Positions 2,621-53,161 of a DNA stretch of 64,000 bases are shown piece after piece. The stretch spans positions 32,001-96,000 of IMG/VR virus record IMGVR_UViG_3300011113_000675; one strand, written 5' to 3'. Numbering within the stretch: position 1 is the stretch's first letter; the number at the start of each line of letters is the position of its first letter. A program made the position numbers and the translations under genes. The notes beneath the pieces are model-generated. The model saw only the letters and a program-made list of their open reading frames with translations, did no database searches and was not told where the DNA came from. This DNA comes from a virus.

Positions 2621-3355
2621 ATGGGTAGATTAACAAAACCGAAACCGACGGCAACTTTGCCAAGTGAAGAAGTACCAATTAAAAATAAAAAACAGCAAAT
2701 CTGTTCAATAATTAAACGAAAAACAAAAGAGAAGTTTCTATCTGAAAGTCAAAAAGAATACTACGAAAAGTTAGTTAATAACCAAATTAGTATATGTTCA
2801 GGTCCGGCCGGTGTTGGAAAAAGTTATATCGCAATGAAATGTGCGGTTGATTTACTTTCTGACCCCAACACACCTTATGAAAAAATTATAATTGTAAGAC
2901 CTGCGGTTGAAGCTGAAGAAAAACTTGGGAGTTTACCAGGTGGGGTGGAGGAAAAACTCGACCCATATATTTTTCCTTCGTATTACCTATTAAATAAAAT
3001 AATCGGTAAAGATACAAGGGAAAAATTAAAGGAAATCGAAGCAATTGAAGTCTTCGCGTTGGCTTACATGAGAGGTATGAATATTGACAACTCCATTTTA
3101 ATTTTCGAAGAAGCTCAAAATTCTACACCGAGTCAAATGAAATTATTACTAACAAGAATTGGGTTCAATTCTAAGTTTTTTATTTCAGGTGATTTAGAAC
3201 AATTCGATAGACATAAAGATAAAACACAAACGGGTCTTTGGGATGCTCTGAAAAAGTTTCAAAATATGGATGATATTGGCGTATTTGAATTCAAATCCAC
3301 AGATATTGTTAGGAATCCATTAATATCCAAAATATTAGAAAAATACGAAGAATGA
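2621..3355 (+). CDS. phoH: PhoH-family ATPase
   Basis: GPAGVGKS, VRPAVE, LGSLPG, YMRG, EEAQN, LTRIG, GDLEQ. Confidence 0.93.
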   Translation: MGRLTKPKPTATLPSEEVPIKNKKQQICSIIKRKTKEKFLSESQKEYYEKLVNNQISICSGPAGVGKSYIAMKCAVDLLSDPNTPYEKIIIVRPAVEAEEKLGSLPGGVEEKLDPYIFPSYYLLNKIIGKDTREKLKEIEAIEVFALAYMRGMNIDNSILIFEEAQNSTPSQMKLLLTRIGFNSKFFISGDLEQFDRHKDKTQTGLWDALKKFQNMDDIGVFEFKSTDIVRNPLISKILEKYEE

Positions 3356-3951
3356 GAATAGGTATTGAACTGAATGGAGTTTTGAGAGATACTCTAAAAA
3401 AAATACAACAAGAATACGAAAAGTGGTATATTGAAAATCCTTTCAGAGACGAAAATGAGGATGACAACTTTCAATATGAAGTTTTATCTAATTTGACATC
3501 TTTAGACATTTCAAAACATTTGAAATTTAAAAATGAAGATGAGTTGTATGATTTTCTTTATAAAGAACATACCATGGAAATTTTTGGTCATGCGGGTTCC
3601 GTTGAACCCTCAGGACTTTTGGACTTGAATGATTTTTACTTGGACATGAGAGATTCCCACGATATTATTATTGTCTCAGATGAAATTGGAAAATCGAAAC
3701 CAGCATCTTTATTTTTCATTTCGAAATTTGGATGTTTAGTTGAATCAGTCAAATTTTACAGTGAAAGTACAATTAATTCACTATGGGATTCAGTAGACAT
3801 TTTACTTACCGCGAATCCTAAACTATTATTGAATCATCCAAAAAACAAAATTGTAATTAAATTCAACACAACTTATAACTACGATGTTGAATCTGATTTT
3901 CATATTTCAAGTCTTAAGGAGTTAAAAACAAAAATACAAGAAATAATATGA
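3352..3951 (+). CDS. HAD-fold 5'-nucleotidase-like protein with degenerate catalytic motif
   Basis: N-terminal IGIELNGVLRD resembles hhhDxDGV with E/N substitutions. Confidence 0.45.
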   Translation: MRIGIELNGVLRDTLKKIQQEYEKWYIENPFRDENEDDNFQYEVLSNLTSLDISKHLKFKNEDELYDFLYKEHTMEIFGHAGSVEPSGLLDLNDFYLDMRDSHDIIIVSDEIGKSKPASLFFISKFGCLVESVKFYSESTINSLWDSVDILLTANPKLLLNHPKNKIVIKFNTTYNYDVESDFHISSLKELKTKIQEII

Positions 3952-5287: not shown

Positions 5288-6094
5288 ATGAATAATACAC
5301 TATCATTATCAGTAATACTACCTATAAAATCTTCCAAAGCAAAAGACTTCGATGAGTACTTTGAAAAGGCAATTTCATCTTTAAAAAATCAACAAGTTGG
5401 TTTTGAAGAACTAGTAATTGTTCATTCACAAGAACAGTCCCTCATTGATTTGTTGAACTCGTATGATTTTGGTGATTTGAACGTCACAAAATTATTGTGG
5501 GACCAAGAACCAAATTATGCAAACCAAGTAAATTTCGGAATAAAAAATGCAAAGGGAACTTGGGTATCCCTTTTTGAATTTGATGATGAATATTCTTCAA
5601 TATGGTTCAAAAATGTTAAAAAATATGTTGAGTCATTTCCTGAAGTACAAATGTTCCTACCTGTTGTAGTTGAGACAGACGAAAAAGGATTATTTGCTGG
5701 TTTCACAAATGAAGCGACATTTGCGGCTAATTTCTCTCAAGAAATGGGTATTTTGACTAACGACACTTTACAAGAATACCAAAATTTTCAAACTGCAGGT
5801 TCTGTAATCAAGAAATCCGTTATCGAAGATTTTGGAGGGTTCAAGCCGTCAATCAAACTAACTTTTATATATGAGTTTTTATTAAGACTAACATATAACT
5901 CAGTTTCAGTAATGACAATTCCAAGGTTAGGTTACAAACACGTTAACTTGAGAGAAGGTTCTATTTTTTGGAATTATAAATTTGGAGACAGTAAAATGGT
6001 TGAAGATGAAGTAAAATTTTGGATTCAAACCGCAAAAAGAGAATATTTTTTCACGGACGACAGATCCATAAAATATCAATCTGAAAATGCTTAA
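5288..6094 (+). CDS. GT2-family glycosyltransferase
   Basis: LSVILP start, NFGIKNAKGTWVSLFEFDD (DxD-like); ATG at 5288 follows the upstream stop. Confidence 0.7.
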   Translation: MNNTLSLSVILPIKSSKAKDFDEYFEKAISSLKNQQVGFEELVIVHSQEQSLIDLLNSYDFGDLNVTKLLWDQEPNYANQVNFGIKNAKGTWVSLFEFDDEYSSIWFKNVKKYVESFPEVQMFLPVVVETDEKGLFAGFTNEATFAANFSQEMGILTNDTLQEYQNFQTAGSVIKKSVIEDFGGFKPSIKLTFIYEFLLRLTYNSVSVMTIPRLGYKHVNLREGSIFWNYKFGDSKMVEDEVKFWIQTAKREYFFTDDRSIKYQSENA

Positions 6095-31758: not shown

Positions 31759-32001
31759 CTATAACTTCTTATACTTGTAGGCTTTTGATATATCTGTGGT
31801 AAAATACTTTCCTTGTGACTCCGCCATTCTGAATTTAGTGTAAGCTTGGTGAGGAACATCTTCATACTCATATTTGAATCCATTGTTAAATTCTACTACA
31901 AGTTTTTTTGTCTCCGTATCGTATTCTGTTTTTTTAATATTGGAAGATTTTATTTCATTAATAATCTTCGTCCCCTGAATCTCTTCTTTCAGTATCGCCA
32001 T
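31759..32001 (-). CDS. KTSC domain protein
   Basis: SSNI...YD...LVVEFNNG..YEY.DVP...AESQGKYF. Confidence 0.85.
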   Translation of the reverse strand: MAILKEEIQGTKIINEIKSSNIKKTEYDTETKKLVVEFNNGFKYEYEDVPHQAYTKFRMAESQGKYFTTDISKAYKYKKL

Positions 32002-45236: not shown

Positions 45237-45237
45237 G

Positions 45238-45312
45238 TTGGGATAGGTGGACTCGAACCACCAACCTTTCGCGTATCAGACGAAAGCTCTAAACCAATTG
45301 AGCTATATCCCA
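45238..45312 (-). tRNA. tRNA-Ile(GAT)
   Basis: Cloverleaf; TTCGT-CTGATAC-GCGAA. Confidence 0.93.
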
Positions 45313-45318
45313 TTGTTG

Positions 45319-45477
45319 CTGTAAGGGAAGGAGTCGAACCTTCACGAGGAGATTCAATTGATAACACAACGCTTGCAAGCTGGTGGTCTACCCCATATTA
45401 TCAATCTATTTCTTTATCCCCGCCCTCGAGACAGGAGGGTGTGTATGCCAAGTTCTAGAACATTTCACCACCTTACA
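45319..45477 (-). tRNA. Aberrant 159-nt tRNA-Asp(GTC)-like RNA
   Basis: TGTAAGG/CCTTACA-G acceptor, CCCTC-CTGTCTC-GAGGG, GAAGG-TTCGACT-CCTTC; 79-nt variable region and enlarged D-loop. Confidence 0.7.
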
Positions 45478-45491
45478 ATATAAACTTGAAG

Positions 45492-45576
45492 CAGAGAGTA
45501 TTGGATTCGAACCAATGCATCCCTTTCGAGATGACAGATTAGCAATCTGCTCCTTTAACCACTCAGGCAACTCTCT
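45492..45576 (-). tRNA. tRNA-Ser(GCT)
   Basis: GCAGA-TTGCTAA-TCTGT, long variable arm, G73. Confidence 0.93.
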
Positions 45577-45580
45577 GTAG

Positions 45581-45651
45581 ATGTCTCATCAGGATTCGAA
45601 CCTGAAAAAACTGAACCAAAATCAGTTGTGTTACCGTTACACCATGAGACA
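45581..45651 (-). tRNA. tRNA-Gln(TTG)
   Basis: ACTGA-TTTTGGT-TCAGT. Confidence 0.92.
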
Positions 45652-45654
45652 AAG

Positions 45655-46056
45655 TTAATACAAACTTTCCTTTTTTACAACCCCCCAATCATATCCACAA
45701 TCTCTATCTAATCTGAAATAGTAATGACCACCAGTAGAATATGCCCTGAACTTTAACATCCAAAAGATTGTATTTTCTAATTCGGAGATTATAGATTCAT
45801 TACCACTCCAACCACAAGTATGGAGTTCAATCATACCATCTTCTTGATTGTATGCATCTGATCCATAGTACCATATTTGTTTGATGTAGTCTAACAGATC
45901 GGTATAATCAGTATTATCGAAAAACTTACCATATACTAACTCACCATCAATCTTTTCACTACCCCAATTTCGGATATACTTTAACGCTTCGTCAGTGGGA
46001 TATCCATCCTCATCTAATAGGTGAAACGGATACAGATAATCTAGTTTATTTTCCAT
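45655..46056 (-). CDS. Hypothetical protein
   Basis: ELHTCGWSGNE, GGHYYF motifs; lies between tRNAs. Confidence 0.6.
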   Translation of the reverse strand: MENKLDYLYPFHLLDEDGYPTDEALKYIRNWGSEKIDGELVYGKFFDNTDYTDLLDYIKQIWYYGSDAYNQEDGMIELHTCGWSGNESIISELENTIFWMLKFRAYSTGGHYYFRLDRDCGYDWGVVKKESLY

Positions 46057-46067
46057 AATTTAATTTT

Positions 46068-46152
46068 TGGTGGGAACGATAGGACTCGAACCTATGAACT
46101 CCTAAGAGAGGAGATTTACAGTCTCCGGCAATTGCCGCTATGCGACGTTCCC
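46068..46152 (-). tRNA. tRNA-Tyr(GTA)
   Basis: GGAGA-CTGTAAA-TCTCC, encoded CCA. Confidence 0.95.
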
Positions 46153-46282
46153 AAGGTTAGGAAAGGAGAAGATGGTTCCGTGGACAACTCCTTTTACGAT
46201 TGGCTTTACTACGATGATTCCAAACTCCAAATGTACCACCTCCATCATCAGGTTAACATACATTCCTTCCCCAATCAACCTT
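46153..46282 (-). ncRNA. Candidate structured non-coding RNA
   Basis: Closing helix AAGGTTG/TAACCTT, internal GATTGG/CCAATC and AAGGAG/CTCCTT; GC-richer than flanks. Confidence 0.45.
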
Positions 46283-46293
46283 TATATCTTATA

Positions 46294-46710
46294 CTACTTG
46301 TTTAACAACCAAGACGAAGATTGAATCTTATCACCAAGTCCATCAATCAACTTGATACCCCACCAATCACATACCTGTCTCTCAGGGATTGAATTATTGT
46401 TTTGGTCCCCACCATTGGCGAAAATAAGTTCGTTTGTTGGATCCTCTCCAGAATGAATCAAACCGAGTGTCTTACATACAGTTCTATCCGTATCAATGGA
46501 TAGAAATGCTTTGTCAACCATTTTTAGGTTTTCGATAATGAACATTCTTTCATCTTCGTCTTGGAACTCTTTACTACCTTTCAACTCTCTCTGTTTGTCG
46601 TTATTTACAATTACATAGAGTTTATCCCCATGTTCTTTGGCTTTATTGAAATATTCAATATGACCTTTATGAACAGGATTAAAATATCCGCTTACAATTA
46701 CAATTTTCAT
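46294..46710 (-). CDS. Cytidylyltransferase-like (TagD/RfaE family)
   Basis: SGYFNPVHKGH (HxGH), FANGGD, KIQSSS. Confidence 0.85.
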   Translation of the reverse strand: MKIVIVSGYFNPVHKGHIEYFNKAKEHGDKLYVIVNNDKQRELKGSKEFQDEDERMFIIENLKMVDKAFLSIDTDRTVCKTLGLIHSGEDPTNELIFANGGDQNNNSIPERQVCDWWGIKLIDGLGDKIQSSSWLLNK

Positions 46711-46895
46711 TTCGTTTCGTAGGTTAAAGTTTCTAATTCTAGTTCACTTTCATAGAAATATGGACATGCCCAAACAGGTTTATCACATTTGAGTTTAACC
46801 ATTCTTCCTTTGTTGTATCCAAGAGAAATGACTATTGCCCATCCTGAATACTTTGTTTTAACTCTGTCTCCAACTTTTAATTCGCTAAATGTCAT
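46707..46895 (-). CDS. Hypothetical SH3/KOW-like small protein
   Basis: LKVGDRVK motif; overlaps neighbours. Confidence 0.45.
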   Translation of the reverse strand: MTFSELKVGDRVKTKYSGWAIVISLGYNKGRMVKLKCDKPVWACPYFYESELELETLTYETK

Positions 46896-47193
46896 CTTCT
46901 ACAGTATCGAGTTCAAAGTTACTAAATTTTAATCCCCACATCAAAGAAATCATTGACATTTGTTGTTCAGCCATTTTAGCATACATACGAAGTTCTTTCA
47001 TAAGGTATTTTTTACCCCATTTTTTCCATTCTTCGTTTTGTTCCATAGTCATAGTCCAATCAGTATACCAACTATCCTTACGGTCCTTGACATCGTCAAA
47101 TGTTACGGGATGACCTGCGATCTCGAACATCTTGTTTATCATATCGACAACCATTTTTTGTTTTTTCTGTTCTTTAGATAATCTCGGTTTCAT
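46885..47193 (-). CDS. Hypothetical protein
   Basis: ORF packed between tRNA-Cys and the next gene. Confidence 0.6.
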   Translation of the reverse strand: MKPRLSKEQKKQKMVVDMINKMFEIAGHPVTFDDVKDRKDSWYTDWTMTMEQNEEWKKWGKKYLMKELRMYAKMAEQQMSMISLMWGLKFSNFELDTVEDDI

Positions 47194-47209
47194 AATTTTT
47201 ATTGTTTAG

Positions 47210-47283
47210 AGGTCAAGAAGGGATTCGAACCCTTGGATACTTGTTTTGCAGACAAGCCCCTTAAGCCACTTGGGTACTTGACC
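47210..47283 (-). tRNA. tRNA-Cys(GCA)
   Basis: CTTGT-CTGCAAA-ACAAG, U73. Confidence 0.93.
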
Positions 47284-47289
47284 GTTTTG

Positions 47290-47361
47290 TGTGACCGAAG
47301 AGAATCGAACTCTTACATGAAGTGCCACAAACTTCCGCCCTACCATTAGGCCACAGCCACC
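47290..47361 (-). tRNA. tRNA-His(GTG)
   Basis: GAAGT-TTGTGGC-ACTTC; encoded G-1, A73. Confidence 0.9.
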
Positions 47362-47376
47362 ATATAATCTTAATGT

Positions 47377-47444
47377 AAGTCAGGACGGGTTTCTAACCCG
47401 CTCTTCAGTTAATCACTGCGTGCTGCCATTTACACCACCTGACT
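47377..47444 (-). ncRNA. tRNA-like RNA with shortened anticodon arm
   Basis: AGTCAGG/CCTGACT acceptor, D-arm, CAGT-GATTA-ACTG arm, GCGGG-TTAGAAA-CCCGT. Confidence 0.6.
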
Positions 47445-47510
47445 AATTTTTAGATTTCTAAAACTCATCCCTAACGGGGTAAAGAAACTCCATCTTATTT
47501 GTTTTTTGCG

Positions 47511-47601
47511 TAGTCAGGACAGGATTCGAACCTGTAACTTTTGTCTTTTGGTTCCGAAAATCGGATTACTCACCAACACGTTACCCTTGCGTCACCTGAC
47601 T
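47511..47601 (-). ncRNA. tRNA-like RNA with expanded non-canonical anticodon arm
   Basis: Same AGTCAGG/CCTGACT acceptor, ACAGG-TTCGAAT-CCTGT, TTGGT/ACCAA enclosing a TCCGA/TCGGA hairpin. Confidence 0.65.
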
Positions 47602-47611
47602 ATAAAGTGAA

Positions 47612-47688
47612 TGGTACTCCGTACGGGACTCGAACCCGTAAGCTCTCCCGTGAAAGGGGAGTGTCCTAACCAATTAGACGAACGGAGC
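47612..47688 (-). tRNA. tRNA-Glu(TTC)
   Basis: CTCCC-CTTTCAC-GGGAG, encoded CCA. Confidence 0.95.
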
Positions 47689-47700
47689 TTGTTTGTCTTA

Positions 47701-47708
47701 CAAAGATA
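47701..47708 (-). promoter_or_regulatory. Proximal Bacteroidota-type -7 element (TATCTTTG) before tRNA-Glu
   Basis: TAnnTTTG match 12 nt upstream of the tRNA. Confidence 0.6.
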
Positions 47709-47716
47709 CTACAATA

Positions 47717-47728
47717 TTTCAAAGAACA
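47717..47728 (-). promoter_or_regulatory. boxA-like antitermination element TGTTCTTTGAAA
   Basis: Matches the rrn boxA pattern GYTCTTT; lies just after the terminator. Confidence 0.5.
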
Positions 47729-47739
47729 AAAGAAGTCAT

Positions 47740-47776
47740 AAAAAAACCCCGAACTTTTTTTAAGAGTTCGGGGTTT
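47740..47776 (-). terminator. Intrinsic terminator (attenuator 3:4 hairpin)
   Basis: AAACCCCGAACT/AGTTCGGGGTTT stem with U7 tract. Confidence 0.88.
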
Positions 47777-47813
47777 GAAAAATTAGTTTTTACAAGTAAA
47801 AAAAATTTCTATC

Positions 47814-47903
47814 TTATGACATCCGAACTACAGGGCAAATAGGTTCATAACAACAATTTTCTTGTTGATTATTACTGATAATATTATGACTTGTAGTTCT
47901 CAT
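47814..47903 (-). CDS. Putative attenuator leader peptide MRTTSHNIISNNQQENCCYEPICPVVRMS (29 aa)
   Basis: ATG..TAA between its own promoter and a terminator; codons match downstream tRNAs; overlaps alternative hairpins. Confidence 0.75.
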   Translation of the reverse strand: MRTTSHNIISNNQQENCCYEPICPVVRMS

Positions 47904-47919
47904 TGTTCTATAATTACTT

Positions 47920-47950
47920 CAAATGTATGAAATGTTTTAATTTTGTCAAA
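47920..47950 (-). promoter_or_regulatory. Bacteroidota sigma-A promoter for the leader: TTTG-N19-TACATTTG
   Basis: Both -33 and -7 elements at canonical spacing. Confidence 0.8.
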
Positions 47951-47997
47951 TGTTTTTTATGGATAGAACTTTTAATTCTATGCATATATTTATTATT

Positions 47998-48369
47998 ATG
48001 GAAAAAAAAGTTTGTTCAACCTGCAATGAAGAAAAACCATTGACTGATTTTTATTTGCGCAATTCAAGAAATAATAAACCTTATGATAGATGTAAAAAAT
48101 GTTTTAACCGTTATTGTGGTGACCGATGGATCACTAAAAAGATTAACGCAATAATTTACAAAGGTTCTAAATGCCTTGATTGCTTTTTATCCTATCCTAA
48201 TGAACCATATGTAATTTTTGATTTTCATCATCGTGAGCCAAACGAAAAAGATTTCGATTGGGGTAAATTAAGATTGAAATCTGATAATACCATAAAGTCC
48301 GAATTAGATAAATGTGATTTACTATGTTCAAATTGTCATAGAAAACGACATCATTTATCTGATTTGTAG
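47998..48369 (+). CDS. HNH homing endonuclease with zinc-finger N-terminus
   Basis: CSTC...CKKC, DFHHREP, CDLLCSNCHRKRH; TATTTAT 4 nt upstream of ATG. Confidence 0.8.
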   Translation: MEKKVCSTCNEEKPLTDFYLRNSRNNKPYDRCKKCFNRYCGDRWITKKINAIIYKGSKCLDCFLSYPNEPYVIFDFHHREPNEKDFDWGKLRLKSDNTIKSELDKCDLLCSNCHRKRHHLSDL

Positions 48370-48438
48370 CCCCACCAAGATTCGAACTTGGAAATCTTCT
48401 TTAGAAGAGAAGCGGTATATCCCTTTACCTATGGAGCC
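48367..48438 (-). tRNA. tRNA-Arg(TCT)
   Basis: CTTCT-CTTCTAA-AGAAG. Confidence 0.9.
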
Positions 48439-48454
48439 TTAACCGATTATTGAA

Positions 48455-48619
48455 TTACTTCAATAAATCAATCTTTTTTGCGACTTCTTCGGCTTCCGCC
48501 ATAAGTTTGTCCGATTGGGTTCTGTTGGAATGAGAAGCCTTATAAGCTTCTTCCATCAACTTCTTATAAGTTTCTTGTAACCTTTCCTTTTCAGTTTTTT
48601 TCTTGAATATCCCGAACAT
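48455..48619 (-). CDS. 54-aa protein resembling the flavobacterial Lacal_2735 family (not in ORF track)
   Basis: MFGIFKKKTEKERLQETYKKLMEEAYKASHSNRTQSDKLMAEAEEV. Confidence 0.65.
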   Translation of the reverse strand: MFGIFKKKTEKERLQETYKKLMEEAYKASHSNRTQSDKLMAEAEEVAKKIDLLK

Positions 48620-48662
48620 AATTTAGAATTAACACTATCGTCTTTGAAAGTTTATTTAACGT

Positions 48663-48908
48663 TTATGCCTGACGGCTAGATAATTTTCTTTCAAGTTTAT
48701 CAAGACGTGAATCCATTGTTCGATAAATGTCATCGACAATTCTATCACGATCTCTCAGTTGATTTTCAATTTCTCTTGCAAGAAATTGGTGAATCTGTTG
48801 TATTTCTTCTTTTTGTTTATTCACCCTAACAAAAGCCATAACCGCAACCACCGCAACTGCAATGACCACAATTATAGACATTCCTAAAATAAATGATATT
48901 AAATCCAT
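48663..48908 (-). CDS. Single-pass membrane coiled-coil protein
   Basis: N-terminal TM helix, MDSRLDKLE; AAAGGAG 8 nt upstream. Confidence 0.65.
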   Translation of the reverse strand: MDLISFILGMSIIVVIAVAVVAVMAFVRVNKQKEEIQQIHQFLAREIENQLRDRDRIVDDIYRTMDSRLDKLERKLSSRQA

Positions 48909-48946
48909 ATGATTTTCTCCTTTATTTCAAAGAACGATAGTGTTTG

Positions 48947-49030
48947 TATCAGGAGAGGGAATCGAACCCTCACTCGCGTTGGCGAACAACATTTTAAGTG
49001 TTGCGTGTCTACCTATTCCACCACCCCGAC
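48947..49030 (-). tRNA. tRNA-Leu(TAA)
   Basis: CAACA-CTTAAAA-TGTTG, long variable arm; TACATTTG at 49040-49047. Confidence 0.93.
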
Positions 49031-49055
49031 ATTGTTTTACAAATGTAATCGATTT

Positions 49056-49706
49056 TCAGATACTTTCAACCCGATGTTTCATGATTTCACAATACTTCTC
49101 GTCGACATCATAACTAACAGAATTAAACCCCAACTCTTTGGCAACTTTACTGGTGGTTCCACTTCCACCAAAAACGTCAATGATTGTTTGGTTTGGTTCT
49201 GCAGTTGTTAAAATAATTCTTCTGATGACTTCCTCAGGTATCTGACAAGGGTGTTCGGTCTTTTCCTTACTCACATTCTTTACCTGATTGATTTCCCACC
49301 AATCATAAAGTTTTGCTCCCGTCTTTCCTTCGGCAATTCGTTGTTGAATCCTTTTATCTTTGAGATTTTTGTATGGTTGTCTAACCTTTCTAAAATCAGG
49401 CTTACATCCCCACCATGAAATTAAACGACTTTGTTTCCCTGTGTTTGAATTATACACCCAACAAACAACCTGTTCACACTTGGCCTTTATTGCTTTTGGT
49501 AACAAGTTGATTGTTTCTTCGGGGTAATGAATGATTACACAAGGGGTTGGGATTTTGGATAATAGTTCAATATAATCCTCTTCACTTAATTTGTCTTTGT
49601 ATTCGTTGTACGAATATTCTTGATTATAAGGTGGGTCTGTAATTGTTAATCCTTTTGGTATGACGCAGTTTCTGAAGTCGTCATTGATAATTGTTGTTTC
49701 CACCAT
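49056..49706 (-). CDS. DNA N6-adenine/N4-cytosine methyltransferase (beta class)
   Basis: TDPPY, HPCQIP, DVFGGSGTT. Confidence 0.88.
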   Translation of the reverse strand: MVETTIINDDFRNCVIPKGLTITDPPYNQEYSYNEYKDKLSEEDYIELLSKIPTPCVIIHYPEETINLLPKAIKAKCEQVVCWVYNSNTGKQSRLISWWGCKPDFRKVRQPYKNLKDKRIQQRIAEGKTGAKLYDWWEINQVKNVSKEKTEHPCQIPEEVIRRIILTTAEPNQTIIDVFGGSGTTSKVAKELGFNSVSYDVDEKYCEIMKHRVESI

Positions 49707-49723
49707 AAAATTAATTAATCACC

Positions 49724-50422
49724 TTAAAATTCTTCTTCCCAAATTGTATTGGACTTGTCTATAATAGTGTTGTATGTGTGTTTTAATATAACAGTTTTTT
49801 CCTTAAAATCAAACTCAAATTCTCCTTGAGATCCTTCATTAATTTCCCAACCTCCGAAGTTTTCTTCTAATTCTTTATAACACCAATTTTCTATTTCGGT
49901 TGGTACAGGTTCACCATTATCGAAATCCGACTCGATATATCCACTATCTCCCCCTCCGTTATACTTCAAGGTCATGTAACCATCTTCAGGAATTTCCATA
50001 TCTTCAAAGACCCCTTTTTCTTCCCACTCTTCAATCATATCATCGTATTCAACTCCACTCGTGTCTCCTTCATCATTATAACTATAGATGTGAGTTAAAG
50101 ATATTTCTTTTTTTACAGAATCAATTGTAATTTCGAATCGTTGATAATCCATGTAAGCACTATCAGGCAATTCTGTTTCTAAATCTTCATCTTCAAAATA
50201 AAAGATAATTCTTTTCAGTATTGGTACAAGTCCGTCTGGAATTTCTGCAACATAATTATTGTCAAAGTGGGTTGGAAAGTCCTCATCACTGTATGAAATT
50301 TGTTCATGATCTGGTTCCATTTCGAATTGAATATCTCCATATTTCATTCCCAATGAAGCAAGATATCTCGCTACTCTCCCTAAATATTTTTTTTCTTCTG
50401 GTAATAGTATATTTTCTGCCAT
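49724..50422 (-). CDS. Acidic hypothetical protein (DUF6878-like C-terminus)
   Basis: YNGGGDSGYIE, GWEINEGSQG; TATTTAT 4 nt upstream of ATG at 50422. Confidence 0.55.
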   Translation of the reverse strand: MAENILLPEEKKYLGRVARYLASLGMKYGDIQFEMEPDHEQISYSDEDFPTHFDNNYVAEIPDGLVPILKRIIFYFEDEDLETELPDSAYMDYQRFEITIDSVKKEISLTHIYSYNDEGDTSGVEYDDMIEEWEEKGVFEDMEIPEDGYMTLKYNGGGDSGYIESDFDNGEPVPTEIENWCYKELEENFGGWEINEGSQGEFEFDFKEKTVILKHTYNTIIDKSNTIWEEEF

Positions 50423-50433
50423 ACAAATAAATA

Positions 50434-50787
50434 TCAGTCTTCGAATTCTAATTTGACTGTCTTCAACATCCACTGTGGTCTTTGACTGGACGCCACATTA
50501 TTAACCCACTCTTTTGCTGACGGAATGTAATTGTTACAATCCTCTTTTACATGTTGTTCTCCAACATAACGGGTGTACACCGTTTTACCATCGGAGTTTT
50601 TGAATTCGGTCCCGAACCTTTTTTCCATTTCAAAAATTCCTTCACTATGGTGTCTGAACATTCTATGTAAGGAATCACCAAACCAAGATTTGGTCTCATC
50701 CAACCATTCGTGGAGGTGAATATAGTCTTCGGGTTTTCCACCAAATTTTTTGGCAGATGATTTAGCATGTAAGTTTGGATGTGCCAC
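50434..50787 (-). CDS. DUF6915-like His-rich protein
   Basis: HAKSSAKKFGG, HRMFRHHSEG, EQHVKED. Confidence 0.65.
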   Translation of the reverse strand: MAHPNLHAKSSAKKFGGKPEDYIHLHEWLDETKSWFGDSLHRMFRHHSEGIFEMEKRFGTEFKNSDGKTVYTRYVGEQHVKEDCNNYIPSAKEWVNNVASSQRPQWMLKTVKLEFED

Positions 50788-50796
50788 AATAAAACT

Positions 50797-51513
50797 TCAA
50801 TTTATTTTTTTTATGTAAATTTTAATATTGTTTCCTGCAAAATAATGGTTTCCAATCAATTCAAAATTAGTTCTGTTAGCTAAAACTTCATTATAAATGT
50901 TTGCTCCTTTTCCGAAAATAGGATATTCTATTTTTTTCCAAATTTCATTATTTGGAAAAACCCACTGTAAATTCGTATCTTTCATCCAATTATCATCGAT
51001 TAAGATAATTCCACCTTTTGGCATAAGATTTTGTATGGATTCAAATTCTTTCCAATGATGAAGTGTTGAAGGAAAAGGATTGAACAAGTCCAAGTCAAAA
51101 CTATCCAAATGAACTATGTTGGGAACAAATGGGGGTCTTTTGAGAAATTCGACGGAATCCATACAATAAGTTTTGTAATTAATCCCATGAAAATTTTCCG
51201 AAAAAATTTCCTCACTTTGTTCACATGATACACAATCAGTATCAACCGAAGCCATCCGACCTCCGTAATTATGGACTAAACTTCCTAAAAAAAATCCGAA
51301 CAAACCGTAACCTACTTTTCCACTTGTACCAGTTTCAATTAGATTTATTTCGTCAAAATCGAAATGTTGTGAAATTAAATCTTTAAAAATTTGAATCTGA
51401 TTAACTCTGTTTTGAACCAAGAAGGAATTTTCTGAGTCAGAAACATGCTTACTCATGAAATTTTTGTACTCCATTTCAGCATGATTCAGTGAAAAAATTA
51501 ATTTATCTGACAT
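50797..51513 (-). CDS. Class I SAM-dependent methyltransferase
   Basis: [24 protein letters not shown]. Confidence 0.7.
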
Positions 51514-51532
51514 ATTAGTTTTTACAATTATG

Positions 51533-51617
51533 CAGAGGAGGACGGATTCGAACCCCCGTTACCTTTCAGTAAAATAGTTTTCAAGACTACCGCCATAAAC
51601 CACTCGGCCACTCCTCT
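51533..51617 (-). tRNA. tRNA-Ser(TGA)
   Basis: GTAGT-CTTGAAA-ACTAT, long variable arm, G73. Confidence 0.93.
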
Positions 51618-52110
51618 ATTTTATTACTTTGTACCCAAAATTATGTAAAACATCTTTACATAATTCTATAAATTCTTCAACACTTAAATTACCTTTAGCA
51701 AAATTTGCTTCGGGTGTTGCAACACCCAAGTTTTCAAAAGTAGATTCACCACCCTTGGATACAGGAACAATATGGTCAAATTGATATTTAGTCACATCCG
51801 ACGTATCAATTTCCCTACCCGATAAATAACATTTCGTTACTGAGTCCAAATACTCTTGGATTTTGACTCTATCGAAATATTTCGAATTATACGTTATGTT
51901 TTCACCTTTATATCTATCGATAAAGTGCTCCTGTTTTTTTAACCAAGGATGTAGATTTCTTTGTTTTACCACTCTCTGATACGCTTTTTCTTTTTGTCCT
52001 AATCCACAATGGTATGATATTGTAGAACGAGAACATCCAAGTTCTTTTTCTATTTGTTTGTAACTTTTTCCCTCTTCCCTAAGATTTAGTATCTGTTTTT
52101 TTAATTCCAT
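51616..52110 (-). CDS. HTH-HNH homing endonuclease
   Basis: N-terminal HTH ([19 protein letters not shown]), [10 protein letters not shown]...N...N.AK. Confidence 0.85.
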
Positions 52111-52236
52111 ACATATAAATATAAGGTTCGAAACAAAAAGATACGAACTTAAACACAAATAATAGGAATGAGTATTTGCAACTGCCCATTCCCTTCAAAA
52201 GACCTACCCTGGTACGTTCTAGCGTGGTAAGTAATT

Positions 52237-52311
52237 TGGAGCTCCCACTCGGAATCGAACCAAGTTATCATGATTACAAGTCATGCGCATCGCCAGCAAT
52301 GCTTTAGGAGC
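52237..52311 (-). tRNA. tRNA-Thr(TGT)
   Basis: CATGA-CTTGTAA-TCATG, encoded CCA. Confidence 0.93.
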
Positions 52312-52319
52312 TTTTTCTA

Positions 52320-53048
52320 TTATTGGTTTCTTAATCCTCTGATGTAAACATCATTTCTCGAATTTAGATTCAACACCATACCACGATCAGTTGTTGTGTA
52401 TATCCTGTATTGTCCAGCGGGAATACGATTACCAGTATAATTAATCACTACTTCTGACAAAACATTATCAGTTTTAATATCTTTTGGAGATCCAGTCCCT
52501 TCAACAATACGTATCCAAGTTTGTCTTTTTGTATCGTTGTTCATAGCATTAATTGGTATTAGAACTACGATATAAGAAAAACTATCATTAACAGTATTTT
52601 TTGCAATTTTTACTGTTTTGAAATTAAATGCTTGGACAGGATTACCAAATGTGTCAATTCCTCCACTTGTTTGGGGAACATCAACTTGCATAATTTGTGG
52701 TAATCTACCATCAATCCAGTGAGGCATATTAATATAATTTGAAAAATTTGGAAAATTGGATTTCATGTTCTCTCCAAGACCAACCCCATGAAACCCAACG
52801 AAGGGTAATCTTCCGGTGAATGGTACAGTCATCAAATAGTTCCTAATCATCGTATGTTTCGATCTTGGTTCAACGAAAATATACGCTCTCAACGATGTTT
52901 GTGTACCACCAACACTCGATGTTGACATAGTTGCATGTTCCATGTTAACAACTGGATTGATTTCACTACCAAGAATATCTTCTTTCGAACAAGATGTTAG
53001 AAATACTAAAAATGTGAGGAGAGACAGTAATAAGTGTTTAATTTTCAT
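52320..53048 (-). CDS. Hypothetical lipoprotein
   Basis: Lipobox LTSC followed by SKED. Confidence 0.65.
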   Translation of the reverse strand: MKIKHLLLSLLTFLVFLTSCSKEDILGSEINPVVNMEHATMSTSSVGGTQTSLRAYIFVEPRSKHTMIRNYLMTVPFTGRLPFVGFHGVGLGENMKSNFPNFSNYINMPHWIDGRLPQIMQVDVPQTSGGIDTFGNPVQAFNFKTVKIAKNTVNDSFSYIVVLIPINAMNNDTKRQTWIRIVEGTGSPKDIKTDNVLSEVVINYTGNRIPAGQYRIYTTTDRGMVLNLNSRNDVYIRGLRNQ

Positions 53049-53087
53049 GATTGTTTTGTTTTATTGTGTTTTTATCGAGTTTCAAAG

Positions 53088-53161
53088 TGGGCCTGGTAGG
53101 AATCGAACCTACTACCTTCACATTATGAGTGTGCCGCTCTAACCTAGTGAGCTACAGGCCC
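53088..53161 (-). tRNA. tRNA with CAT anticodon, likely Ile2 (lysidine) rather than Met
   Basis: Loop CTCATAA; Ile-type acceptor GGGCCTG/CAGGCCC-A; TACCTTTG at 53206-53213. Confidence 0.8.

Follow-up and report, generated by a model that had tools for sequence, protein, structure and literature searches.

Several described systems couple the decoding of a short leader to transcription of the genes behind it. The leaders of the ilvGMEDA operon, with Ile, Val and Leu codons, and of the thr operon, with Thr and Ile codons, each combine a short translated open reading frame (ORF), mutually exclusive 1:2, 2:3 and 3:4 helices and an intrinsic terminator, and they use several kinds of control codon, slow decoding of any of which favours read-through. 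The pheST attenuator of Escherichia coli controls a component of the translation apparatus through the decoding of cognate codons, and T-box riboswitches use transcription attenuation to answer transfer RNA (tRNA) status, thereby exerting feedback on tRNA-related genes. Here, we analyze a cassette that resembles these systems and that lies directly in front of a block of phage tRNA genes. It is located at positions 47950-47740, on the minus strand, of a stretch of 64,000 nucleotides (nt) corresponding to positions 32,001 to 96,000 of the IMG/VR virus record IMGVR_UViG_3300011113_000675; this whole stretch is referred to below as the window. The source is a phage of Bacteroidota bacteria, whose genome is a single contig of 142,443 base pairs (bp) with 34% G+C, and ARAGORN and Rfam identify 12 minus-strand tRNA genes within positions 45237-53161 of the window. 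Comparative analysis indicates that the cassette is probably a ribosome-mediated leader-peptide transcription attenuator, which would report the decoding speed of the codons served by the tRNA genes downstream of it.

The cassette shares with the ilv and thr attenuators the layout described above and the use of several kinds of control codon. Unlike in these systems, the genes that would be controlled are tRNA genes, not genes for biosynthetic enzymes, and the leader contains one to three codons for each of 7-13 tRNA species, instead of runs of codons for one to three amino acids. It also differs from them in that it belongs to a phage of Bacteroidota, is served by promoters of Bacteroidota type and lacks a Shine-Dalgarno sequence, and in that a boxA-like element and a second promoter-like site follow the terminator. 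The likeness to pheST is that a component of the translation apparatus would be controlled by the decoding of cognate codons; in pheST, however, a single amino acid is sensed and a synthetase is regulated, whereas here the sensor would comprise many codons and the product is tRNA itself. T-boxes, which occur mainly in Firmicutes, recognize uncharged tRNA directly, by means of a specifier loop and a T-box bulge, without a ribosome, whereas the cassette studied here has a conserved ORF instead, and no T-box match was found when it was sought in Rfam. The leader families of Rfam (His_leader, Phe_leader, Thr_leader and others) gave best scores of 19-21 bits, against gathering thresholds of 49-55, and these scores were driven by the terminator. 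Literature searches retrieved no leader-peptide attenuator for tRNA genes, of phages or otherwise, in agreement with the claim of an original prediction, made from the window alone, that no phage tRNA array had been described to be controlled in this way. The tRNA cluster of phage T4 is likewise an array with small ORFs, mobile-endonuclease-like genes and small RNAs; to our knowledge, no leader-peptide attenuator has been described there. As far as we know, leader-peptide attenuation has been little studied in Bacteroidota in general.

Parts of the cassette and conservation of its ORF and helices

Reading of the minus strand places the promoter, the 29-codon ORF and its peptide, the terminator and the four pairing segments exactly where the original prediction had located them. 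The prediction's list of elements had omitted a second promoter-like site (P2) and a boxA-like 16-mer, both located behind the terminator. With these included, the parts are the following.

47950-47920, minus strand: promoter P1 of the leader transcript, of Bacteroidota type, consisting of TTTG (47950-47947), 19 nt and TACATTTG (47927-47920)
47903-47814, minus strand: leader ORF of 29 codons, with ATG at 47903 and TAA at 47816-47814
47899-47892, minus strand: segment 1, GAACTACA, in codons 2-4, the 5' strand of the anti-antiterminator helix 1:2
47867-47851, minus strand: tip hairpin (CAACAA, loop, TTGTTG) inside the ORF, codons 13-18
47832-47823, minus strand: segment 2, TGTAGTTCGG, which pairs with segment 1 or, forming the antiterminator, with segment 3
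47773-47765, minus strand: segment 3, CCCCGAACT, the 5' arm of the terminator
47755-47747, minus strand: segment 4, AGTTCGGGG, the 3' arm of the terminator
47746-47740, minus strand: U-tract (T7), the end of the intrinsic terminator (47773-47740), whose G+C-rich stem has 9 bp
47727-47712, minus strand: boxA-like 16-mer, GTTCTTTGAAATATTG, between the U-tract and tRNA-Glu
47730-47701, minus strand: promoter P2, consisting of TTTG (47730-47727), 18 nt and TATCTTTG (47708-47701)
47688-45237, minus strand: downstream tRNA block, with Glu(ttc), His, Cys, Tyr, Gln(ttg), Ser(gct) and Ile(gat)

The ORF is separated from the terminator by an A+T-rich spacer of 47 nt, and the downstream block of about 2.5 kb also holds interspersed ORFs and tRNA-like elements. 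Both P1 and P2, with spacers of 19 and 18 nt, have the boxes of a promoter for the primary sigma factor of Bacteroidota (-33 TTTG and -7 TAnnTTTG, about 19 nt apart). Full sites of the form TTTG-N17-21-TAnnTTTG occur 22 times in the 142-kb genome, compared with about 6 estimated from base composition, and two of them flank the cassette. The two boxes of P1 are retained in most homologues, with TACATTAG, TATATTTG and TATCTTTG as variants of the -7 box. The leader folds as one long imperfect hairpin that is closed by helix 1:2 and followed by the terminator, and folding of the cassette region compared with shuffled sequences gave z = -4.45. Of the features by which ribosome-mediated attenuators are recognized, the cassette has the short ORF, the intrinsic terminator, the exclusive antiterminator 2:3, the anti-antiterminator 1:2 and the cognate control codons; it departs from them in having P2 behind the terminator, the lack of an independent promoter at this position being a typical feature of such attenuators rather than a strictly defining one.

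Homologous cassettes were needed to evaluate these elements. A megablast search of the region against reference phages returned nothing, a sensitive search of the same phages matched tRNA-Glu only, and a scan of viral contigs with an exact-stem terminator pattern gave no match. The neighbouring gene for a cytidylyltransferase-like protein, on the other hand, led to 80 uncultured viral contigs, 12 of which contain the cassette, with identities of 68-92%. Viral and metagenome contigs were then scanned with patterns, an ATG not being required in the second scan, and filtering with a profile yielded 58 unique cassette sequences that fall into four sequence groups. The position of the cassette within the tRNA array is identical in all relatives, where it divides two tRNA blocks. 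The upstream block contains Pro or Met, Asn, Asp, Gly, Thr, Ser(tga), Leu and Arg(tct), and the downstream block starts with Glu, variably followed by Val, Phe and Lys, and then by Cys, Trp, Tyr, Met, Gln, Arg(acg), His, Ile and Ser(gct). No paralogue of the cassette was found in the window's own genome.

The ATG does not vary among the homologues; each of the 58 unique sequences has an ORF of 24-36 codons, and together they encode 47 distinct peptides; the other two frames of the leader contain one to five stops. At least five independent frame changes have occurred through indels just before segment 2, and the ORF nevertheless always reaches into or through this segment, which is read in all three frames across the lineages. 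Therefore, segment 2 is conserved as RNA, and the C-terminal part of the peptide is not conserved, only the openness of the frame being kept. The stop codon is located 2-18 nt past the start of segment 2 in most lineages, including that of the window, and 36 nt past it in one group. When the window is compared with its relative L020, nine of the ten codon changes replace a residue and the tenth is a change from TAA to TAG at the stop; amino-acid changes among close relatives, which are mostly replacements, look neutral. Together, the open frame, the shifting C-terminus and the predominance of replacements form the signature of a leader peptide and not that of a functional small protein. A functional micropeptide, for which the RNA pairings would be secondary, could account for the conservation of the ORF and for its recurrent core Gln-Gln-Glu-x-Cys-Trp-Tyr-Glu. 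We regard this explanation as very improbable, however, given that the C-terminal third is in different frames in different lineages and the length varies from 24 to 36 codons, that substitutions are mostly non-synonymous, that the conserved core coincides with an RNA hairpin, and that paralogous leaders (see below) have the same architecture without any peptide similarity. The stem of the tip hairpin is invariant, partly by ascertainment because it formed part of the search pattern, and it is also intact in the 12 contigs that were found via the neighbouring protein; it may be a pause hairpin. We also considered the ORF region as a degenerate tRNA, with an 8-bp closing stem around 59 nt, and rejected this candidate: ARAGORN and Rfam find no tRNA there and no cloverleaf fits.

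Pairing of the helices was counted in an alignment of 51 sequences whose rows are related, so that the numbers of independent events are overstated; even so, each helix shows several distinct pair states. In the terminator state (helix 1:2, tip hairpin and helix 3:4), 87.9% of the cells are paired, compared with 25-44% in slid controls, and seven pairs have changed on both sides. For the antiterminator 2:3 the corresponding values are 84.5%, 30-42% and four pairs. Taken individually, helix 1:2 has 78% of its cells paired and five pairs changed on both sides, and the terminator helix 3:4 has 95% of its cells paired and contains compensatory changes from C:G to U:A. The pair states observed in helix 2:3 are UA/CG, GC/AU/GU and GC/AU, and its covariation score is 0.245 versus 0.191, with 0/500 shuffles as high. 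Moreover, segment 3 has a position that covaries with segment 2 in one sequence group and with segment 4 in another, and a screen of leader windows for complementarity to segment 3 revealed none comparable to segment 2. Thus, the four-segment scheme that was originally deduced from the window, in which helix 1:2 plus the 3:4 terminator alternates with a 7-bp helix 2:3, is borne out by the 51 homologues, in which all three helices are kept with compensatory changes.

The original prediction had proposed folding the leader with and without masked ribosome footprints. In our folds the RNA extended up to the terminator loop and a footprint of 28 nt was masked at each P-site codon in turn. For the window, about one 2:3 pair is expected without a ribosome, about seven when the P-site is at codons 1-13 or 18-21, and none from codon 22 onward. 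The same switching was obtained for 9/9 representatives, some of which already form three to seven expected 2:3 pairs without a ribosome. In these modelled structures the classical three-state logic of the trp type is reproduced, as had been anticipated.

Leader codons and the tRNA genes that follow

The original prediction held that 14 of the 19 codons at positions 5-23 of the window leader are read by the seven downstream tRNAs; this is correct on recount, and the value exceeds the genome background, which is 0.25 in the long ORFs of the phage. When the 739 short ATG ORFs of the 142-kb genome are ranked by the number of such cognate codons, a statistic that was tailored post hoc to the window ORF, the leader ORF comes first (14 codons; the next has 12). 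The accompanying claim, that the matching isoacceptor is used each time, adds little as an argument, because most of these amino acids have one possible isoacceptor. A measure that counts species instead of codons gives a similar picture: codons 2-21 of the window leader include a cognate codon for 7/7 downstream species, compared with a null mean of 3.2 (P about 0.001). Windows of 20 codons drawn from the phage's own genes give a null coverage of about 45%; coverage is 13/13 in the relative L024 and 12/13 in L186.

The relatives allow the coverage of downstream and upstream tRNA species to be compared within the same phages. In the 12 phages for which both blocks are well covered by sequence, 99/109 downstream species are covered by the leader (91%) versus 22/73 of the species that occur only upstream (30%), and the latter nonetheless include common amino acids. 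Counts per species were made for codons 2-21 of the leaders of 28 phages whose downstream block is well covered. A cognate leader codon accompanies tRNA-Phe in 9/9 cases, tRNA-Lys in 6/6, tRNA-Arg(acg) in 7/7, tRNA-Asn in 5/5, tRNA-Tyr in 23/23 and tRNA-Ser(gct) in 21/21, as well as tRNA-Trp in 26/27, tRNA-Ile in 22/24 and tRNA-His in 15/17. Presence of the tRNA and presence of the codon are concordant in 356/448 comparisons, versus 338.7 +/- 4.3 under within-group permutation (p = 2e-4). A preliminary codon test that pooled all tRNAs of each partial locus did not reach significance in groups 2 and 3; because it had too little power and did not separate the upstream from the downstream block, the block-specific tests were used instead.

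Individual pairs of relatives show how the codons follow the gain and loss of tRNA genes. The array of L024 includes tRNAs Arg(acg) and Lys, tRNA-Phe and a second tRNA with a CAU anticodon, and its leader contains CGT, AAA, TTT and ATG; L022 lacks these four tRNAs and has CAG, CAT, ATT and ATT at those leader positions. The split at codons 6 and 12 (CGT and AAA versus a Gln codon and CAT) recurs in another sequence group, between L186 and L223. A single recombination tract cannot explain this association, because the 3' half of the leader is group-specific in L186 and L223.

Related phages also contain paralogous leaders in front of other tRNA blocks. They were discovered through a weak second profile match in L132, followed by a scan of all loci for a short ORF adjoining a terminator of this kind. 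Two types were found.

L186, just upstream of tRNA-Pro, minus strand; L024, about 3120-3290, plus strand; also L021, L085, L164, L165, L180, L184 and L220: Pro-block leader
L132, 3395-3463 (region 3395-3570), plus strand: Leu/Arg leader, a 22-codon ORF with five TTA and four AGA codons

The Pro-block leader has 29-34 codons, is rich in Pro, Thr, Asn, Gly and Asp codons, and is located directly upstream of a Pro-Asn-Asp-Gly-Gly-Thr(-Ala) block in at least nine contigs. Its architecture is that of the main cassette: segments 2 and 3 covary through three perfectly complementary states, and a TAnnTTTG box follows directly after the U-tract. The Asp codons are missing in a phage without tRNA-Asp. 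The Leu/Arg leader, whose first four codons are those of the main family, is followed by a terminator, a TATCTTTG box (TAnnTTTG) and tRNA-Leu(taa). Despite the common architecture, the paralogous leaders share no peptide similarity. L186 carries two leaders, and their codon sets are reciprocal: 6/6 species of block A and 2/13 of block C have a cognate codon in leader A, and leader C in turn serves 12/13 species of block C and 2/6 of block A. A leader was also sought in front of tRNA-Met, and none was found. The paralogues constitute an independent replication, and no other observation argues more strongly for a functional role of the codon content. The suggested check of whether leader codons track the downstream anticodons thus gave a positive answer, both across relatives and in the paralogues, which match their own blocks.

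The codon data also bear on the possibility that the three-helix switch is real and that it senses general translation (ribosome availability, initiation or nascent-peptide arrest) or some other factor, the codon match being a by-product. In favour of this view, segment 1 begins one base after the ATG, so any ribosome within the first dozen or so codons would free segment 2; runs of a single control codon are lacking, the core Gln-Gln-Glu-x-Cys-Trp is invariant, and the match between codons and tRNAs has exceptions. This explanation leaves unaccounted for, however, that leader codons follow the gain and loss of tRNA genes between relatives, that coverage is so much higher downstream than upstream (91% vs 30%), and that two paralogous leaders in one phage have reciprocal, block-specific codon sets. 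We therefore consider it unlikely, although it is the most serious of the alternatives.

A second promoter-like site and a boxA-like element behind the terminator

The -7 box of P2 ends 12 nt before tRNA-Glu. Similar TAnnTTTG boxes end 4-20 nt (in practice 5-18 nt, most of them 5-12 nt) ahead of the tRNA in 36 of the 233 unique tRNA upstream regions of the phage group, where 3 are expected, an approximately 12-fold enrichment, and a P2-type box is present in 51/52 cassettes. Based on the enrichment of these boxes before tRNA genes, P2 is very probably a real promoter. In the window, a TACATTTG box also precedes tRNA-Leu(taa) by 10 nt.

Conservation of the P2 spacer greatly exceeds that expected of a promoter spacer, and this spacer contains most of the boxA-like 16-mer (47727-47712). 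This 16-mer is present in many Bacteroidota genomes. Among 120 genome matches, mostly to Bacteroidota, the exact 16-mer is found 44-208 nt upstream of the 5' end of 16S ribosomal RNA (rRNA), on the same strand, in 10 cases; a further 28 matches are at contig ends, as rRNA flanks often are, and Rfam confirms the 16S gene in three of five loci checked. The element behind the U-tract is thus identical to one found in 16S leaders of Bacteroidota, and it resembles the boxA core of the rrn operons of Bacillus and E. coli. Unlike the boxA of rrn operons, it is located behind a putatively regulated terminator, in a phage tRNA array and upstream of the -7 box of P2; binding of NusB and NusE to it is putative. 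The element, or a variant with one or two mismatches, follows the terminator in 44-45 of 52 cassettes. A shorter boxA-like copy (13/16 bases) occurs at 48923-48935 on the minus strand of the window, between tRNA-Leu(taa), which it closely follows, and an 81-codon ORF.

Because the 16-mer lies upstream of the P2 -7 box, boxA would be present only on RNA that has been transcribed past the terminator, and this placement argues that read-through is functionally important. The arrangement suggests a two-tier scheme, in which basal transcription from P2 is complemented by regulated read-through by polymerases that are probably Nus-modified.

The same region allows another explanation, in which the cassette is a small transcription unit of its own, either a small RNA or an insulator that separates two tRNA operons by its terminator; this terminator would be constitutive, the downstream tRNAs would be transcribed from P2 only, and the ORF and its codon content would be incidental. 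The cassette does have its own promoter and a strong terminator followed by P2, its ORF region folds as a single long hairpin, leaderless modules consisting of a terminator, a promoter and a tRNA gene exist elsewhere in relatives, and the tRNA cluster of phage T4 also has stable small RNAs. A constitutive terminator, however, has no need for a segment 2 that covaries with its 5' arm. Nor would such a unit explain why the ATG is invariant and the frame has stayed open through independent indels, why the codon content matches the tRNA block, or why a boxA is carried by read-through RNA only, an indication that read-through matters. Hence, we hold this possibility to be improbable, more so than a switch sensing general translation.

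Other features of the neighbourhood deserve mention. A Cys-rich ORF of 123 residues (47998-48369, plus strand) is situated between tRNA-Arg and the cassette; a Pfam search with it gave no match. It looks like a recent insertion, because tRNA-Arg abuts the P1 of the cassette in relatives, and it is possibly a mobile gene of the endonuclease type. An HNH/HTH protein is encoded nearby (51616-52158, minus strand). Between tRNA-Glu and tRNA-His (47611-47361, minus strand) there are two tRNA-like elements that share acceptor-stem sequence and have a T-arm (e.g., 47519-47535), for which ARAGORN and Rfam call no tRNA. Another tRNA-like stretch, with a T-loop of the GGTTCGA type, is located between tRNA-Ser(gct) and tRNA-Ile (45313-45490, minus strand) and is likewise uncalled by these programs. 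In the relatives L216 (about position 6023) and L218, ARAGORN reports downstream of tRNA-Glu a tRNA with a four-base anticodon (agta), with no identity given. ARAGORN also predicts a gene resembling tRNA-SeC(tca) outside the window (G000:C1:109829-109921), at a great distance from the main tRNA array.

Evaluation of the putative attenuator, proposed mechanism and significance

Our analysis covers the sequence elements, their conservation, the covariation of the three helices and the matching of codons and tRNAs in relatives and paralogues; from these, we infer translation of the ORF, coupling of transcription and translation, recruitment of Nus factors and the physiological trigger. As far as comparative sequence analysis reaches, the interpretation of the cassette as an attenuator is supported, and the three computational checks that had been proposed for it (footprint-masked folding, codon enrichment and codon/anticodon co-variation) all turned out favourably.

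Contigs from RNA libraries provide additional, limited information. A contig from a lake metatranscriptome covers 47815-47908; beyond 47908, which lies five bases ahead of the ATG, it continues directly as sequencing adapter, and this junction is a weak hint that it marks an RNA 5' end. Two contigs of another study comprise tRNA-Glu, P2 and boxA, and extend up to 47727 and 47741, respectively. Among the RNA-library contigs listed, none bridges the terminator and none covers 47934-48257. These contigs show the existence of such RNA or DNA fragments and say nothing on levels of termination or read-through.

Several observations weigh against the attenuator interpretation. Firstly, as regards the data, the RNA evidence consists of assembled library contigs, from which neither the ends and strand of transcripts nor ribosome occupancy can be read; the search pattern included the tip hairpin and the Gln-Gln-Glu-x-Cys codons; and the homologues are related, so that counts are not independent events and the number of independent contrasts is estimated at only about four to six. 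Secondly, as regards the codons, Gly(tcc), Leu(tag) and, in part, Val(tac) and Met are without cognate leader codons, the choice between TGG and TGT at codon 18 does not follow the presence of tRNA-Trp, and the leader has no runs of identical control codons such as those in the his or phe leaders. The window leader furthermore has four AAT codons, and the window has no tRNA-Asn. L167, whose leader peptide is identical to that of the window, has a tRNA-Asn downstream, between Glu and Cys, where the window has the two tRNA-like elements and tRNA-His; this history likely explains the four AAT codons. Thirdly, as regards the switch, the 5' untranslated region would be very short (about 5-11 nt), and the 7-bp helix 2:3 of the window, with -10.7 kcal/mol compared with -16.5 kcal/mol for the terminator, is the weakest antiterminator of the family; in the other groups the helix has 9-10 bp and -13 to -15 kcal/mol, about equal to the terminator. 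In addition, the equilibrium fold of the full-length RNA is always the terminator, whichever footprint is masked, and such folds do not discriminate between states. In the trp leader the terminator is likewise adopted at equilibrium. Because the equilibrium RNA always folds to the terminator and helix 2:3 of the window has only 7 bp, the switch must be kinetic. Finally, a conserved P2 lies between the terminator and the tRNA genes, and expression of the block does not depend on read-through; therefore, the switch would modulate tRNA expression rather than gate it absolutely.

Taking these points into account, we propose that the attenuator would operate as follows. Transcription would start at P1 or arrive from the upstream tRNA genes. 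With no ribosome on the leader, segments 1 and 2 would pair, the 3:4 terminator would form and transcription would stop at the U-tract. A ribosome that proceeds smoothly to about codon 22 or to the stop would cover segment 2, and the terminator would form as well. A ribosome that lingers at about codons 1-13 or 18-21, on the other hand, would mask segment 1 or open the long hairpin, and the freed segment 2 would then pair with segment 3 before segment 4 has been made, allowing the polymerase to read through. The read-through RNA, containing a boxA of the host type, would probably recruit Nus factors and thereby render transcription through the 2.5-kb tRNA block processive, and P2 would independently provide a basal level. 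The outcome would be a negative feedback on tRNA supply. Slow decoding might stem from the cleavage or decay of tRNAs or from insufficient charging; tRNA-depleting host defences and starvation, which the original prediction had put forward as triggers, are candidates.

A broader model can be put forward only tentatively, as possible rather than probable. According to this model, phages of this group would have a modular, demand-driven supply of tRNAs, in which each tRNA block stands behind a leader that is its own codon inventory and P2 sets a floor. The captured boxA would make polymerases resistant to termination, and the leader would co-evolve with the gain and loss of tRNA genes. The system could then answer selectively to the loss of particular tRNAs, for example through cleavage by host anticodon nucleases or through phage-induced decay of host tRNA.

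The reasons for which phages carry tRNA genes, and the control of these genes, have been debated for decades. The ideas put forward are that the tRNAs compensate for codon usage, take the place of degraded host tRNAs or allow escape from defences that cleave tRNA (e.g., PMC10264068). If the attenuator functions as proposed, it would constitute a direct feedback from decoding speed to the transcription of tRNA genes, and the leader sequence would allow one to infer which tRNAs are co-regulated; recoding one codon of the leader would be predicted to release a single tRNA from this control. The captured boxA of the rRNA type suggests that the phage borrows the antitermination machinery of its host for the tRNA array. 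A functioning attenuator would also mean that the attenuation logic of the trp and his operons extends from amino-acid supply to tRNA supply, and to the Bacteroidota.

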